A stretch of DNA of 64,000 bases from Escherichia phage vB_EcoP_G7C. How positions within the stretch are numbered: position 1 is the first letter of the stretch; each line of letters starts with the position of its first letter. The position numbers and the translations under genes were made by a program. Under the pieces are notes generated by a model. That model had not been told where the DNA came from. It was given only the letters and a program-made list of their open reading frames with translations, and ran no database searches. Positions 3,155 to 64,000 of the stretch are shown here, piece after piece. The DNA lies in sequence record NC_015933.1; one strand, 5' to 3'.

Positions 3155-3463
3155 TTGAATGAAATAGTATGCATACTTCCACACTTAGCTAAAGTAGCTG
3201 ATAGGAATATACGGATACATTTACCCTTCCCATTAAGTAATCCATTTACTCGTAATGAAAGAACCACAGTAGAGGATATAGAGGTAGCTTATGAGGCTTA
3301 CCTTCGCAATCGTCTTATTAGTGGTGACAAATTAATTACAGCAGAGATGGAAAGGATTGCTGGTTTTGTCACAGATAGTACAAAGAAACCTGTTGGTTTA
3401 ATTGGTACTGAATCTGATGTTAACGTTATTCGTAAAATATTAATGGAGGCTCTAAGCCAATGA
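3155..3463 (+). CDS. Hypothetical protein (102 aa, TTG start per track)
   Basis: GGAG 8 nt upstream of TTG. Confidence 0.4.
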   Translation: MNEIVCILPHLAKVADRNIRIHLPFPLSNPFTRNERTTVEDIEVAYEAYLRNRLISGDKLITAEMERIAGFVTDSTKKPVGLIGTESDVNVIRKILMEALSQ

Positions 3464-60518: not shown

Positions 60519-60768
60519 GAGAATCTTCCTTTGGATGGAATCGTATTAGTCTGCCCACAATATTTAAAGCAAACAGTGCGATTGTAATACTGGAACCATG
60601 TGGAATATCTTCAAGGATGTGACGTGGTAGTCCTGTTAGCATTGGTTGGATAATATCTACTGTAGAAAACAGAATTAATCCAAATGCACTAATCTGAACA
60701 GATGCCCACTTCCAGGACTTCTTCCAGTTAGGAACTAGCCCTATTTTTCTTTTTAGCTTGTGAACCAT
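60508..60768 (-). CDS. Putative holin/pinholin (two TM segments; 86 aa from internal Met; track ORF 60508..60834)
   Basis: ISAFGLILFSTVDII and ITIALFALNIVGRL hydrophobic helices; GGGAG RBS before the internal ATG; immediately upstream of the SAR endolysin. Confidence 0.45.
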   Translation of the reverse strand: MVHKLKRKIGLVPNWKKSWKWASVQISAFGLILFSTVDIIQPMLTGLPRHILEDIPHGSSITIALFALNIVGRLIRFHPKEDSHES

Positions 60769-61085
60769 GCGAATATCTCCCGTCTTGCAGCAGCCAATAC
60801 ACCAATAATTGCACCTGCCCCAGCCCACACCCACTTACCAAAAATTCCAGCACCTGCAACCTTATGTTTAATGGTGATGAACTCTTCGATGGTAGGTTCA
60901 GACTTAGTGATGCTCTCCTCTACCCGTCTAAGTCGGGTACTAAGATCACCCATAGACTCGCTTAGCTTTTTAATAGACTCTTCCATTTTCTCCCTATCCC
61001 TCGATTCACGAGTTTGGTTTTCGAAAATGTTTCTCAGTCTCTCTTCAAGTCTGGCTAGAGTTACGTTATCTGGTTCATTTCCCAT
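60753..61085 (-). CDS. Membrane protein with coiled-coil N-terminus and C-terminal TM helix (candidate holin/antiholin or lysis regulator)
   Basis: C-terminal GAGIFGKWVWAGAGAIIGVLAAA hydrophobic segment; first gene of the lysis cluster. Confidence 0.4.
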   Translation of the reverse strand: MGNEPDNVTLARLEERLRNIFENQTRESRDREKMEESIKKLSESMGDLSTRLRRVEESITKSEPTIEEFITIKHKVAGAGIFGKWVWAGAGAIIGVLAAARREIFAWFTS

Positions 61086-61152: not shown

Positions 61153-61182
61153 ACAACAAAAAAGCCCCTCCCTCATGGGCTT
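61153..61182 (-). terminator. Intrinsic terminator (minus strand) downstream of tailspike gene
   Basis: On minus strand AAGCCC-ATGAGGGAG-GGGCTT followed by TTTTTGTTGT. Confidence 0.5.
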
Positions 61183-61205
61183 CGAAGATTAAATACTTTT
61201 TCTGA

Positions 61206-61233
61206 TGATAAAAATAACCCCGCCGAAGCGGGG
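61206..61233 (-). terminator. Intrinsic terminator (minus strand): CCCCGC-TTCG-GCGGGG hairpin + T-run
   Basis: On minus strand GC-rich 6-bp stem with TTCG tetraloop followed by TTATTTTTAT; identical hairpin at 63844. Confidence 0.6.
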
Positions 61234-61261
61234 CATAATTTTAGTTAACTGCTATGCCAGA

Positions 61262-63817
61262 TTAGCCCACATTACCAATAGTCATGCTGTACTCAAGAGT
61301 AAATAACTGACTAGAAGCAGACGGGTTATATAATCCTACATAACCAGAGGTAGCTACAGTAGTAGAGAATGCAGACGTAGTTGCCGTGCCATCATCTGAC
61401 TCTACAGTAAAGGTATGAGCACCAGTAGAGGAGGAAGTATATTCCCATACTTTAAAGCCTTTATCTTCACGAGTAGTATCACCAAATACTACCCAGTCAG
61501 TTGGGTTAGCATTGTTGAACGTACCGATGCACATATTACCTGCAGCATTCACACCGACTAACACACCAACATTAGTAAGTGGGTTATAGTTAAGTGCAAT
61601 ATAGGTGTTTTTCTTAAGACCTCTCGGTACAGCCAGATAACCTACAGATGCACCATTATAAAGGTGAGAGTCTGCGGTTTTACTGAACTGAGTACCAGAC
61701 AAAACTTCACCAAATACACCATAGTCATTGGCGTTAGACTGCTTCATTACTGGAGCAGGACGGGTCATGTTAGGTTCTTTGCTAAGACGAACCATCGGCA
61801 GCTTAACCCCATCCGTTTTGTAAGAACCAAACTTCAGCATAGGGAAGTAAGCATCAGTAGGACTACCATCAATGATATAACGGATAAAGTTCAAACCTTT
61901 ACGTAATCGCCCCATATAGGTAGTAAGGGTTTTGCCACCCCCAAAGTAACTCATGGCAGTCTTGCCATTAAGCACGGTGCGGTAGGCATTAATTTGAGTA
62001 TTACGTTCTTGGTATTCACCGGACTCAAACAATGCTTTGCCCACAGGAGACTCAACACGGATGTTGTGGGATTGCCCAACAACGGCAGCATTAGTCCATG
62101 GTTCTAGAAGGGATACAGTCATACCTTCTTCTTCACACCATACCATTGTGGTCATGGTTACATTTTCATTAGTTACACACTTAGACAGAAAACGGAATAC
62201 GTTCAGAGCAGGAGCACCAGATACAGGTACATACTGTGGTGCATAGTGAGTACCGGAAGGATACCCTACACAATCCCAATAGTTTTCTACAGCAGCCTGA
62301 GTGAGCATATCCCCCGGTCTAACACGACGACAGTACTTATTACCAAGGGTCTGCATATACATCGCATTACCCATAGCCATTTGTCCAAGTTCTTGTGGGT
62401 GAGTAGTATCCCAGGTTCCATCCTTCTTAACATAGTAGTAGTACCCAGTTTGCTCATTGCGGCTACTTGCACTAGTCAGATTTGGTCCCAAGTTAAAATA
62501 CTCAACACCTAGTTTATCTGCCATGTACTTCTTAGTACTAAGCTCAAATGCCATACGTACTGAGTCATTATCGTTGACTGTTACAATACCAACGGCACAA
62601 CCGTAGCCCCATGCTTTACGAACAAACTTGTCAATCTGGTCACGGTAGGTAGCGATACTAGCACTACTGTCATTCCAACCCATTGCAAGGATACATACAC
62701 GAGGAGCTTCTGCACCATAGCGTGTGTTACCGAAGAACCCACGGTCGAAGTTACGATAACCCCAACCGTCGGATAACTTCTTACCAGATACGGAACAGTT
62801 AGCTGATTGGTAAATAGTTTCACCACTACGACGAGACTGTGTGAGCAACAAGCCATTCATCCAGTGTTCAGTCCATGAGTGGGAACCCCCAGATAAAGAA
62901 TGATTGTATGTACTTGGGGCATCTAAGTCACCATCTGAGTTAGTTGGCGGAGAACTCCAATCCTGTTTACCCCATGCACCATCAGTAATGGAATCGCCAA
63001 TGATACCGATACGACAAAATGTCTGGTCACGGAATGCACAGTATATTTCGTCATTAACGGTTTTATTGTTACCATTCATTGAAGCAGCAATGTCAAACGT
63101 ATGGTCCTTTGCATACCACTGGTTTTTAACAATAAGTTTGCCTTCCCCAACAAACTTACGGACATCATCATCGGGTAGTAAGTTACAACGAATGGTAACA
63201 CCATTAGGGATAAAGATTTTACCGGGGAAAGCATAAGCAGCTGCACGGTTATCCGTAGTAGTATTAACAACAATACCAGGAACATCATATACGGAAGTAG
63301 AACCAACAGGAGGAATTAGACCATTGTTTAATTCTTGTCGTATTAATTCATCATTAGCAATAACCCATGCAGTGGGAGAAATACCACCTGCACTAACCGG
63401 GGTAGAGTTAAGTGGTACGCTCTTGGGTAACCCACCAGCCCAGCGATACTGCGTGCCATTATGAGTAAGCAATTCATTCTTGGTCTGTATAACTGAGCCA
63501 GAAGTAAACGTATCCGGTAAAGTTACATATTCTTTGCGAGTAACAGCTAATGCACCTAAGTCCACGCTACCAGCAGAGTGAACTAATACACCAGCAGGAC
63601 TAAGGCTTATAGCAGTAACACCTGAACCAATGTTAGCAGGTAAGGAATAAGCACGCTGTGTCCCTTTGTCGTAGATGACTTTGTAACCACTTAGTACAGC
63701 ACCCACTGAGAAGTAAACAACCTCAGATTGTTTAACCCCAAAGTGACGTGCTATTGCTTGTTTATTGGTTAGGATTCCTGTTGAACCCTTACCGCCTTGT
63801 GAGAACATTTCGTTCAT
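61262..63817 (-). CDS. Tailspike protein with SGNH/GDSL-type esterase domain (candidate O-antigen deacetylase receptor-binding protein)
   Basis: GDSITDG (SGNH block I) and AMGWNDSS (block III GxND); 851 aa; architecture as described for esterase tailspikes of G7C-type N4-like coliphages. Confidence 0.65.
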   Translation of the reverse strand: MNEMFSQGGKGSTGILTNKQAIARHFGVKQSEVVYFSVGAVLSGYKVIYDKGTQRAYSLPANIGSGVTAISLSPAGVLVHSAGSVDLGALAVTRKEYVTLPDTFTSGSVIQTKNELLTHNGTQYRWAGGLPKSVPLNSTPVSAGGISPTAWVIANDELIRQELNNGLIPPVGSTSVYDVPGIVVNTTTDNRAAAYAFPGKIFIPNGVTIRCNLLPDDDVRKFVGEGKLIVKNQWYAKDHTFDIAASMNGNNKTVNDEIYCAFRDQTFCRIGIIGDSITDGAWGKQDWSSPPTNSDGDLDAPSTYNHSLSGGSHSWTEHWMNGLLLTQSRRSGETIYQSANCSVSGKKLSDGWGYRNFDRGFFGNTRYGAEAPRVCILAMGWNDSSASIATYRDQIDKFVRKAWGYGCAVGIVTVNDNDSVRMAFELSTKKYMADKLGVEYFNLGPNLTSASSRNEQTGYYYYVKKDGTWDTTHPQELGQMAMGNAMYMQTLGNKYCRRVRPGDMLTQAAVENYWDCVGYPSGTHYAPQYVPVSGAPALNVFRFLSKCVTNENVTMTTMVWCEEEGMTVSLLEPWTNAAVVGQSHNIRVESPVGKALFESGEYQERNTQINAYRTVLNGKTAMSYFGGGKTLTTYMGRLRKGLNFIRYIIDGSPTDAYFPMLKFGSYKTDGVKLPMVRLSKEPNMTRPAPVMKQSNANDYGVFGEVLSGTQFSKTADSHLYNGASVGYLAVPRGLKKNTYIALNYNPLTNVGVLVGVNAAGNMCIGTFNNANPTDWVVFGDTTREDKGFKVWEYTSSSTGAHTFTVESDDGTATTSAFSTTVATSGYVGLYNPSASSQLFTLEYSMTIGNVG

Positions 63818-63827
63818 ATAAACCTCT

Positions 63828-63860
63828 TTGTTTTTCTAAGAAACCCCGCCGAAGCGGGGG
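63828..63860 (-). terminator. Intrinsic terminator (minus strand), same CCCCGC-TTCG-GCGGGG hairpin as at 61217
   Basis: Identical 16-nt hairpin; on minus strand followed by TTTCTTAG; downstream of the partial gene at window end. Confidence 0.55.
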
Positions 63861-63864
63861 TATT

Positions 63865-64000
63865 CTACCTGATAATGAACTTACCGAGGCTCATATCATT
63901 TATCAGAGTTGCAACTATGTTTGCCAGTTGGGTGGTTGTTAACGTGTTCACATCACCACCACGCAACTGTCCGGCGTTTGTGAATGGGAACTGCTGAGGC
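63865..64000 (-). CDS. C-terminal fragment of a minus-strand gene continuing beyond the window (probably tail fibre/adaptor)
   Basis: Minus-strand frame open from window end to TAG at about 63865 (…LANIVATLINDMSLGKFIIR*); followed by terminator. Confidence 0.35.
   Translation of the reverse strand, partial: PQQFPFTNAGQLRGGDVNTLTTTQLANIVATLINDMSLGKFIIR

Follow-up and report, generated by a model that had tools for sequence, protein, structure and literature searches.

T4-type phages reportedly contain PeSL (promoter-early stem-loop) cassettes, attributed to Arbiol, Comeau and Krisch in 2010, in which short repeated regulatory stem-loops lie on either side of exchangeable genes and are believed to promote their shuffling. 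The His-boxes of T-even gp37/38, conserved recombination motifs in tail-fibre genes said to go back to Tetart et al. in 1998, and the boundary sequences of lambdoid phages are both short conserved sequences at module borders that have been proposed to guide host-range swaps. The two identical hairpins of Escherichia phage vB_EcoP_G7C (G7C; NC_015933.1) analyzed here are comparable to His-boxes and lambdoid boundary sequences as short border sequences, but those are coding motifs or linkers, whereas the G7C hairpins are putative terminators. They also differ from PeSL cassettes, which join an early promoter to a stem-loop and carry small accessory ORFs, in that they lack a promoter and belong to late structural genes.

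Closer precedents exist for G7C and its relatives. The accessible text of Babenko et al. 2019 (bioRxiv 10.1101/542787), citing Kulikov et al. 2012, reports that in G7C-like phages genes 63.1 and 66 are separated by a stem-loop resembling a terminator, regards it as the left limit of recombination exchanges of g66 and proposes a role in recombination. Pas et al. 2023 (Virol J 20:174, PMC10408124), whose data set included both G7C tailspikes, reported a conserved non-coding 'motif three' of 20 nt immediately behind the receptor-binding-protein genes of Gamaleya-, Kutter- and Justusliebigvirus, which is predicted to be a terminator and was proposed to be a recombination hotspot. A terminator hairpin at the module border and its proposed recombination role are thus already known for this phage group. 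The Ackermannviridae tailspike papers do not discuss terminators. The accessible preprint text of Babenko et al. says nothing of another such copy behind g63.1, and searching it for ssb or a remnant gave no match. The present analysis adds that the identical pair occurs in G7C alone among the loci compared and is no conserved device, that the repeated 16-mer has the sequence of a generic terminator, and that fossil flanks (the end of an ssb gene, and the start of g63 in phage AV101) reveal in which direction and how far sequence once moved between phage families. The decayed ssb 3′ end of siphophage-type donors behind the first hairpin is a new, if small, point. Phages employed for typing, detection and therapy owe their host range to the swapping of tailspikes, and knowing which flanks travel with the receptor-binding module is useful for the design of chimeric phages and for reading natural mosaicism.

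The hairpin pair at the tailspike locus

The window, i.e. the whole 64-kb stretch of G7C DNA that was analyzed, contains exactly two copies of the 16-mer CCCCGCCGAAGCGGGG (plus strand), at positions 61218–61233 (copy 1) and 63844–63859 (copy 2). No third match was present even with up to two mismatches, and the number of occurrences in 100 dinucleotide shuffles of the window was 0. An initial annotation had placed identical hairpins at 61217–61232 and 63844–63859; their identity and the second position were confirmed, while the first position was one base off. The direct repeat around the hairpins comprises 18 nt (AACCCCGCCGAAGCGGGG) with a spacing of 2626 nt. On the minus strand, both copies read CCCCGC-UUCG-GCGGGG and form a 6-bp G/C stem with a UUCG tetraloop (-12.0 kcal/mol). 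The T-rich tract said to follow each copy on this strand is present in both cases. Copy 1 is followed by TTATTTTTATC, with a U-rich tract at 61206–61217 (TTATTTTTATCA, minus strand) and an 8-nt U-tract UUAUUUUU scoring 7/8; copy 2 is followed by the weaker TTTCTTAGAA, whose 8-nt U-tract UUUCUUAG scores only 5/8.

The 851-aa ORF between the copies (61262–63817, minus strand) was 100% identical to PDB 4QNL over all 851 aa and matched the Pfam families G7C_C, G7C_GBD, Gp63_3rd_G7C and Tail_spike_N, and is therefore gene 63.1 encoding the SGNH-esterase tailspike gp63.1 of G7C. Copy 1 lies 28 nt past its TAA stop codon. Copy 2 lies 5 nt past the TAG stop (63865–63867) of gene 66, the first tailspike gene, of which the 3′ end (63865–64000, minus strand) is included before the window ends. 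Located in the same g63.1–g66 spacer and likewise terminator-like, copy 2 corresponds to the stem-loop described in the accessible text of Babenko et al. Only 26 nt separate it from the ATG of g63.1. They form the g63.1 leader TTTCTTAGAAAAACAAAGAGGTTTAT (63818–63843, minus strand), which includes the ribosome-binding site along with the weak copy 2 U-tract and is nearly invariant across Gamaleyavirus, Kuttervirus, Agtrevirus and Phapecoctavirus loci. That the hairpins bracket a tailspike gene, as originally noted, is literally true; each is better seen as the end of its own tailspike gene.

Both copies display the sequence features of intrinsic terminators, namely a stable G/C-rich stem-loop, a 3′ U-rich tract and a site downstream of a gene on the coding strand, and both were picked up by a terminator scan of the window. 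Their anatomy is no different from that of ordinary UUCG-tetraloop Rho-independent terminators, with which they share the G/C stem, the stable tetraloop, the U-tract and the position after a stop codon; only its recurrence after tail spike genes sets the G7C-type hairpin apart. The remaining GC-rich hairpins of the window are all of other sequence. About two dozen other terminator-like hairpins are present in the window, and the 16-mer follows the two tailspike genes only. An Rfam search with the hairpin yielded no family, only a sub-threshold snoRNA match attributable to chance, and no sigma-70-like site adjoins either copy. In the records of PhAPEC7 (ARNold) and Skate, equivalent hairpins, among them homologues of copy 1, are annotated as terminators. 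Probably, both hairpins are Rho-independent terminators or 3′-end-protecting stem-loops of minus-strand late transcripts, each closing one tailspike gene, and their identity does not mark a paired device. The initial suggestion that both act as terminators is backed by what the sequence implies, by the comparison of phages and by the annotation of other groups.

DNA hairpins serve as early promoters of phage N4, and G7C is N4-like, so that promoters of the virion RNA polymerase have to be considered. N4 virion-RNA-polymerase promoters consist of a 5–7 bp stem with a 3-nt loop and are located upstream of genes in the early region. In contrast, the hairpins analyzed here have a 4-nt loop, are located at the 3′ ends of late structural genes and are followed by T-tracts. 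Moreover, the same element occurs in myoviruses and siphoviruses without such a polymerase, which leaves this reading a negligible chance.

Structure and sequence of the hairpins in related phages

Relatives of G7C keep a hairpin at both positions, with other sequences. In 18 upstream sequences of relatives, a hairpin stands directly before the invariant leader, and its stem is CCCCUC/GAGGGG, GCCCCC/GGGGGC, GGUCAC/GUGACC or another one. Alignment of these upstream hairpins showed 95% of the cells paired and three pairs changed on both sides. As three double-changed pairs amount to few independent events, the replacement by unrelated stems is the stronger argument. A site-specific recombination site (attC-like or a nuclease target) was rejected, since no conserved recognition sequence was found and the stem varies freely among the 18 upstream sites.

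The same hairpin or a one-pair variant was found in Kuttervirus, Agtrevirus and Gamaleyavirus loci. Like motif three (about 20 nt, a predicted terminator in Gamaleya- and Kuttervirus; PMC10408124), the G7C-type hairpin family is conserved across genera. Motif three starts 0–19 nt past the stop codon, a range that includes copy 2 (5 nt) and leaves out copy 1 (28 nt). AV101 has the CCCCGC hairpin immediately behind TSP1 and TSP4, a CCCCUC variant behind TSP2 and a CCCCGCTTTGGCGGGG variant in the TSP4–TSP3 spacer, while no hairpin of the family was detected downstream of TSP3. In Kuttervirus loci and in Skate, DS8 and FV3, too, the hairpin stands behind tail spike or fibre genes.

At the upstream position the CCCCGC allele is confined to G7C. 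An identical left/right pair was present in only one of 16 related loci, G7C itself, so that the pair is not a conserved device. This bears on the idea that the two copies work as a direct-repeat pair, either as arms for cassette exchange, as initially proposed, or in excision or duplication of g63.1. The exact 18-nt repeat at a distance of 2626 nt would suit such a function, the two flanking hairpins of F22 likewise have a 9-bp stem in common, of another sequence, and similar hairpins separate the tandem tailspike genes of Ackermannviridae. However, the two sides differ in 15 of the 16 loci, and a repeat of 18 bp is shorter than efficient homologous recombination usually requires. Furthermore, exchange between phages needs homology between phages, not left-right identity of the flanks within one genome, and none of the loci examined lacked g63.1 while carrying a single hybrid hairpin. 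Taken together, a working direct-repeat pair is very improbable.

The 16-mer is not restricted to tailspike loci. An exact scan found it in at least 120 unrelated IMG/VR contigs. Among the matches listed, 98 of 125 had a T-tract (five or more T among the following 8 nt) after the 16-mer on the UUCG-sense strand, compared with 20 on the other strand. Local similarity to the window was seen in three of the listed contigs and was weak; only DS8 matched at the hairpin, and the 16-mer was of no help in tracing relatives. In AV101, the same 16-mer also follows the capsid gene. Judged by its sequence, the 16-mer is a generic intrinsic terminator. The initial annotation had named, as the outcome that would speak against its own reading, a common terminator at many unrelated positions with no link to module borders. 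The hairpin is indeed common in unrelated viruses, but it is not free of association, given its confinement to the tailspike genes within the window and its recurrence after spike and fibre genes elsewhere. This is more association than a generic terminator predicts, and a further role in recombination is therefore possible.

Such repeated emergence in unrelated viruses would also fit pure convergence, in which two unrelated terminators happened to reach one optimal sequence that lies two compensatory changes from the common CCCCUC/GAGGGG allele. Just one compensated base pair sets copy 2 apart from the commonest upstream allele, and the stem sharing of F22, with another sequence, points in the same direction. 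Against this, both copies follow the only two tailspike genes of the window although about two dozen terminator-like hairpins are available. Moreover, copy 1 shares homology, also in its flanks, with the terminators of AV101, Bas96, Skate and DS8 and was therefore inherited rather than reinvented. We regard convergence as unlikely. In the terminator reading preferred here, the two copies would be identical because tailspike modules circulate with their own terminator and because few short, strong terminator sequences exist.

Homology ends and fossil joints

These hairpins are where homology blocks shared by Gamaleyavirus, Ackermannviridae and several siphophages come to an end. Alignments break off at the outer edge of copy 2 (63859) in 11 loci and, for AV101 and Bas96, at the inner edge of copy 1 (61233); the g66 3′ end, 85.6% identical at the nucleotide level to a tailspike gene of Agtrevirus MK-13, ceases to align at 63861. 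In the comparison of related tailspike loci called for initially, these homology ends thus coincide with hairpin edges. As to the initial idea that the hairpins are homology arms, the blocks do stop at them. Paired identity does not provide the arms, being found in 1 of 16 loci and amounting to a very short 16–18 bp, and longer arms exist elsewhere. The real arms are the N-terminal coding block of about 350–390 bp with the 5′UTR, and the sequence downstream of copy 1. In G7C, the conserved block coding for the N-terminal anchor domain of g63.1 (63467–63817, minus strand), taken with the leader and copy 2, has 87% identity with AV101 TSP1 as well as with PhAPEC7, and represents the real upstream arm for swapping the receptor-binding part. 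The downstream conserved flank contains a gene 63 homologue (N4 gp63-like; 60753–61085, minus strand), of which the first ~37 codons are also present in Agtrevirus AV101.

Two fossil joints lie 55–260 bp beyond copy 1. In G7C, positions 61175–61205 (plus strand) carry a decayed ssb relic, corresponding to the final ~10 codons of that gene and 86.6% identical to Skate over 67 nt, where the counterpart codes for MDFDDSIPF*. PhAPEC7 retains 100 nt of ssb-type sequence (81%). In Skate/DS8-type siphophages, ssb converges on the tailspike gene and the same terminator serves both; copy 1 was probably bidirectional in origin. The second joint is found in AV101, which contains 261 nt of G7C-type sequence beyond the hairpin, including the start of g63. 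Because the siphophage-type ssb end and the other fossil joint lie beyond copy 1, the hairpin travelled as cargo in those transfers. Furthermore, G7C, Bas96 and AV101 have the ssb relic and the hairpin in common while carrying three unrelated receptor-binding parts, indicating that in at least two swaps the downstream crossover fell within this ~60-bp block or at its edge.

Alternatively, the hairpins could act as recombination signals, in the form of a cruciform, of a barrier to replication or to Holliday junctions, or of a target for nucleases, and promote crossovers at tailspike borders, possibly in addition to a terminator role. This was proposed by Babenko et al. 2019 and is also the hotspot idea of Pas et al. 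2023. It gains from the homology ends at the hairpin edges (63859, 63861 and 61233), from the crossovers in or at the ~60-bp block and from the recurrence of the hairpin after spike and fibre genes in several phage families. On the other hand, intergenic spaces measure only 40–60 nt and consist mostly of the hairpin, so that any viable gene joint ends nearby; the fossil joints lie well beyond copy 1, the many unrelated stems at the upstream position argue against a sequence-specific nuclease site, and the 16-mer also stands behind the AV101 capsid gene. Moreover, MK-13 and fGh-Ecl02 have the G7C-type g66 end without this hairpin, and Penshu1 and SKA64, with the receptor-binding parts closest to that of gp63.1, have a different one. 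Active recombination signals are therefore unlikely.

The latter four phages also led us to reject two narrower proposals, namely that copy 2 was imported with the g66 receptor-binding part, its closest g66-end relatives being MK-13 and fGh-Ecl02, and that copy 1 is tied to the esterase receptor-binding part. An apparent shared breakpoint of AV101 and ZCKP1 at 60974/60975 proved on inspection to be offset by ~10 nt and was discarded as coincidence.

A more specific scenario can be drawn from the same joints. The terminator and the ~30-nt ssb relic might form a portable downstream landing pad, through which both a podovirus (the G7C lineage) and a myovirus (AV101) would share ~60 bp with the tailspike–ssb junction of Skate/Jersey/DS8-type siphophages. 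Together with the anchor block, it could allow repeated cross-family capture of receptor-binding parts, and hairpin extrusion or fork stalling might raise the crossover frequency. No siphophage that could have donated the receptor-binding part of AV101 TSP1 or that of Bas96 was retrieved from the phage collection. We consider this scenario quite unlikely.

Proposed action of the two hairpins

Transcription of N4-type late genes relies on the RNA polymerase of the host, an enzyme that responds to terminators of this type. In the terminator reading, copy 2 would close g66 and copy 1 would close g63.1, the two consecutive tailspike genes. Copy 1 is predicted to be an efficient terminator, whereas copy 2 would be a partial terminator at most, or an RNA-stability element. 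Frequent read-through of copy 2 is expected because its U-tract is poor, the start of g63.1 is only 26 nt away and no promoter lies between. The hairpins would mark module borders because the surviving unit of exchange is a receptor-binding part with its terminator, and the homology driving exchange would reside in the longer conserved blocks adjoining them.

Two observations sit less easily with plain terminators: copy 2 must leak for g63.1 to be expressed, and alignment ends fall exactly on the hairpin edges. Finally, a second, weaker terminator-like hairpin (AAGCCC-9 nt-GGGCTT followed by T6; 61162–61182, minus strand) lies downstream of copy 1, in the place of the only terminator that other Gamaleyaviruses have after g63.1.

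Two identical hairpins downstream of consecutive tailspike genes

Within the 64-kb window, the 16-mer CCCCGCCGAAGCGGGG has exactly two occurrences, at 61218-61233 (copy 1) and 63844-63859 (copy 2). They are spaced 2626 nt apart, each as part of an 18-nt direct repeat (AA plus the 16-mer). The initial annotation had recognized identical hairpins around a tailspike gene correctly, but placed the first one base too low (61217-61232). No further copy was found in the window with up to two mismatches allowed, and none in 100 dinucleotide shuffles of it. Read on the minus strand, both copies form CCCCGC-UUCG-GCGGGG, with a folding energy of -12.0 kcal/mol for the bare stem-loop, and are followed 3' by TTATTTTTATC (copy 1) and TTTCTTAGAA (copy 2). 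About two dozen other GC-rich hairpins adjoin T-runs in the window, none with the same sequence.

All genes of the region are located on the minus strand. The 851-aa open reading frame between the copies, g63.1 (61262-63817, minus), shows 100% identity to PDB 4QNL from end to end and matches the Pfam families derived from the tailspike gp63.1 of G7C, as well as a GDSL esterase domain. The window thus represents phage G7C or a sibling that carries an identical gp63.1. The other tailspike gene, g66, lies upstream and is cut by the window end. As the g66 TAG stop (63865-63867) precedes copy 2 by 5 nt and the g63.1 TAA stop (61262-61264) precedes copy 1 by 28 nt, each of the two successive tailspike genes has one hairpin as its 3' element. 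After copy 2, the minus strand continues with a 26-nt leader, which includes a ribosome-binding site, and then the g63.1 ATG. A short palindrome (CAGAGTTGCAAC/GTTGCAACTATG, 63904-63919) within the 3' end of g66, adjoined by a weak promoter-like minus-strand match (63942-63914), is probably due to chance.

The pair was compared across 16 loci that have the conserved leader and a complete g63.1-type gene; G7C alone shows identical hairpins flanking that gene. In PhAPEC7 the upstream hairpin is CCCCUCUUCGGAGGGG and the downstream one GCCCCACCGAAGUGGGGC; in Bas96, CCCCUCUUCGGAGGGG is found downstream, and the upstream stem is unrelated. The upstream stem of AV101 and the Kuttervirus loci is CCCCUC, the downstream stem CCCCGC. 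In F22 (OP870143), a 9-bp stem (AAAGCCCCC/GGGGGCTTT) is common to both flanking hairpins and the loops differ. Left-right identity is not conserved, and it is unnecessary for exchange between genomes. Identity within one genome is a peculiarity of G7C, best explained by origin from a shared pool of tailspike modules together with the small number of ways in which a short strong terminator can be built. The F22 pair, unrelated in sequence to that of G7C, is a second instance of look-alike terminators around a 63.1-type gene. After g63.1, PhAPEC7 (L001 3408-3437) and PhAPEC5 (L125) carry a longer, perfectly palindromic hairpin, CTAGCCCCAC-CGAA-GTGGGGCTAG, with a loop inverted relative to G7C so that UUCG lies on the opposite strand.

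Predicted terminator function and distribution of the hairpin

The exact 16-mer was detected in at least 120 IMG/VR stretches. At least five T residues within the next 8 nt accompany 98 of the 125 listed occurrences on the UUCG-sense strand versus 20 on the opposite strand. Kinship to G7C among the listed contigs is restricted to weak local matches in three, the rest being unrelated, and only one, Shigella phage DS8, matches at the hairpin itself. This spread and the T-tract bias indicate that the 16-mer is an intrinsic terminator of general purpose that recurs among viruses. Where copy 2 lies, related loci (18 different upstream sequences) keep a hairpin directly before the near-invariant leader TAGAAAAACAAWGAGGT...ATGAACGAAATG. 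The stems vary (CCCCUC/GAGGGG is commonest; GCCCCC/GGGGGC, GGUCAC/GUGACC, CCUCC/GGAGG and others also occur), pairing is maintained in 95% of cells, and three pairs display changes on both sides. G-C at the fifth pair exists in G7C only among these 18 sequences.

Host RNA polymerase transcribes N4-type late genes, so such terminators should act. In PhAPEC7 (ARNold) and Skate, the equivalent hairpins carry a terminator label given by other groups. Together with the G/C stem-loop, the T-tract bias of the listed copies and the retention of a hairpin in relatives, this annotation makes the terminator role initially proposed for both hairpins a well-supported prediction. No promoter was predicted near the g63.1 start downstream of copy 2, where 26 nt leave no room for one, and we infer that copy 2 must be a leaky terminator.

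The element is enriched after tail spike and tail fibre genes without being exclusive to them, as its positions in AV101 and FV3 demonstrate. Three exact copies of the 16-mer lie in the initial 150 kb of AV101, behind TSP1, TSP4 and the major capsid protein gene, the last (record 119305-119320, within L158) being a position unrelated to tailspikes; one-pair or loop variants are found after TSP2 and in the TSP4-TSP3 spacer. A tail-fibre gene of Vequintavirus FV3 is followed by a near-identical hairpin. Penshu1 and SKA64, the phages closest to G7C in the gp63.1 receptor-binding part, lack the 16-mer hairpin, as do MK-13 and fGh-Ecl02, the closest in the g66 end.

Borders of the tailspike modules

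The window was aligned against 38 related loci. In its backbone it shares about 94% identity with Gamaleyavirus phages, N4-like podoviruses such as F22, E20, Bas96 and PhAPEC7. Copy 2, the leader and the coding sequence of the N-terminal anchor domain form a block common to tailspike genes of Gamaleyavirus, Kuttervirus, Agtrevirus and Phapecoctavirus. In 11 of the aligned loci it ends on the outside at 63859, where copy 2 has its outer edge; its inner end ranges from 63414 to 63645. The 3' end of g66 is 85.6% identical to a tailspike gene of Agtrevirus MK-13, with homology ending at 63861. Downstream of g63.1, homology is lost at 61162-61172 in most Gamaleyaviruses; in AV101 and Bas96, whose receptor-binding parts are unrelated to that of G7C, it reaches 61233, the inner edge of copy 1. 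The ends at 63859, 63861 and 61233 demonstrate that the hairpins coincide with homology-block borders, in line with the breakpoint pattern the initial annotation had envisaged. The contrary case that it named, a common terminator without any link to module borders, applies only in part: the 16-mer is generic in unrelated viruses, but the borders do coincide. As the spacers comprise just 40-60 nt, viable gene-gene joints must fall close to a hairpin. The border association is real and already published, and it is weakly diagnostic of mechanism.

Babenko et al. (bioRxiv 10.1101/542787) describe a terminator-like stem-loop between 63.1 and 66 as the left limit of g66 exchanges in the G7C-set phages, credit Kulikov et al. 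2012 with first noting it, and suggest a role in recombination. 'Motif three' of Pas et al. 2023 (PMC10408124), a 20-nt non-coding motif closely 3' of receptor-binding-protein genes, is a predicted terminator and proposed recombination hotspot conserved in all Gamaleya-, Kutter- and Justusliebigvirus genes of their data set, which includes both G7C tailspikes. The Ackermannviridae tailspike papers do not mention the hairpins. The pair observation is real, and border association and recombination proposal are known from the literature.

An ssb relic and tailspike transfers between phage families

Directly behind copy 1 lies a decayed ssb 3' end (61175-61205, plus sense). Relic and hairpin together (61175-61233, about 60 nt) match the ssb 3' end and terminator of siphophages (Skate, DS8, the seszw/LPST10 group and others), in which a single bidirectional terminator serves the converging ssb and tailspike genes. 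Skate is matched at 86.6% identity across 67 nt (E = 1e-12 in a search of 2.3 Gb). The Skate sequence ATGGACTTCGATGATTCAATACCCTTTTGA codes for the canonical SSB tail MDFDDSIPF and a stop; its G7C counterpart, ATGGGCTTCGAAGATTAAATACTTTTTCTGA, is decayed. PhAPEC7 (L001 about 3322-3421) and PhAPEC5 harbor a longer relic (100 nt, 81%), readable as GGNEPTMGPDNSIPF plus stop. In F22, L124 and L129 the relic is missing, and the conserved T-run directly adjoins a different hairpin. The match of both relic and terminator to siphophages indicates that copy 1 reached the Gamaleyavirus lineage together with the tailspike 3' end of a siphophage-type donor, which places the joint 55-70 nt or more past the hairpin. 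Another terminator-like hairpin, weaker and followed by a T6 run (61162-61182, minus), lies 35 nt past copy 1; its 5' arm (GGGCTT on the plus strand) is built from the relic. F22, L124 and L129 have their sole terminator after g63.1 at this position.

In AV101 (Agtrevirus, OQ973471; L002 6001-6259), 261 nt located 3' of TSP1 are 93.5% identical to G7C; they span the hairpin, the relic of ssb, the spacer and the start (~37 codons) of an N4-type gene 63. This similarity represents direct sequence evidence that a tailspike cassette moved from a Gamaleyavirus into an Ackermannviridae phage, a podovirus-to-myovirus transfer with its joint lying 260 nt past the hairpin. G7C, Bas96 and AV101 combine the same relic with three different receptor-binding parts, so later swaps must have had their crossovers inside the relic-plus-hairpin block or at its edge. 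The suggestion that the hairpins serve as homology arms is thereby narrowed: a modest role may fall to the ~60-bp block, but not to the 16-mer alone, and the pair is identical in one of 16 loci only. A term search gave no mention of ssb or a remnant in the texts of Pas et al. and Babenko et al.; the relic and the AV101 gene 63 fragment are small new additions.

Phapecoctavirus ZCKP1 (L153, MH252123; 4955-5256 and 5418-5583; also L150) carries a tailspike N-terminus truncated to 102 aa, along with the conserved leader and a hairpin. A Gamaleyavirus gene 63 fragment (window 60809-60974) is present in ZCKP1 and L150 in permuted order; the ZCKP1 break abuts that of AV101 at 60974/60975, with an offset of ~10 nt on inspection. 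Phapecoctavirus SKA64 (L165 3786-3850) and Kayfunavirus Penshu1 (L164 3897-3960), the nearest relatives of the gp63.1 esterase part (50-55% at the amino acid level), have in common a downstream hairpin, GGGTC-AAGGAC-GACCC, and the start of a T7-type holin gene. They represent another tailspike cassette whose donor 3' flank moved into a different phage family.
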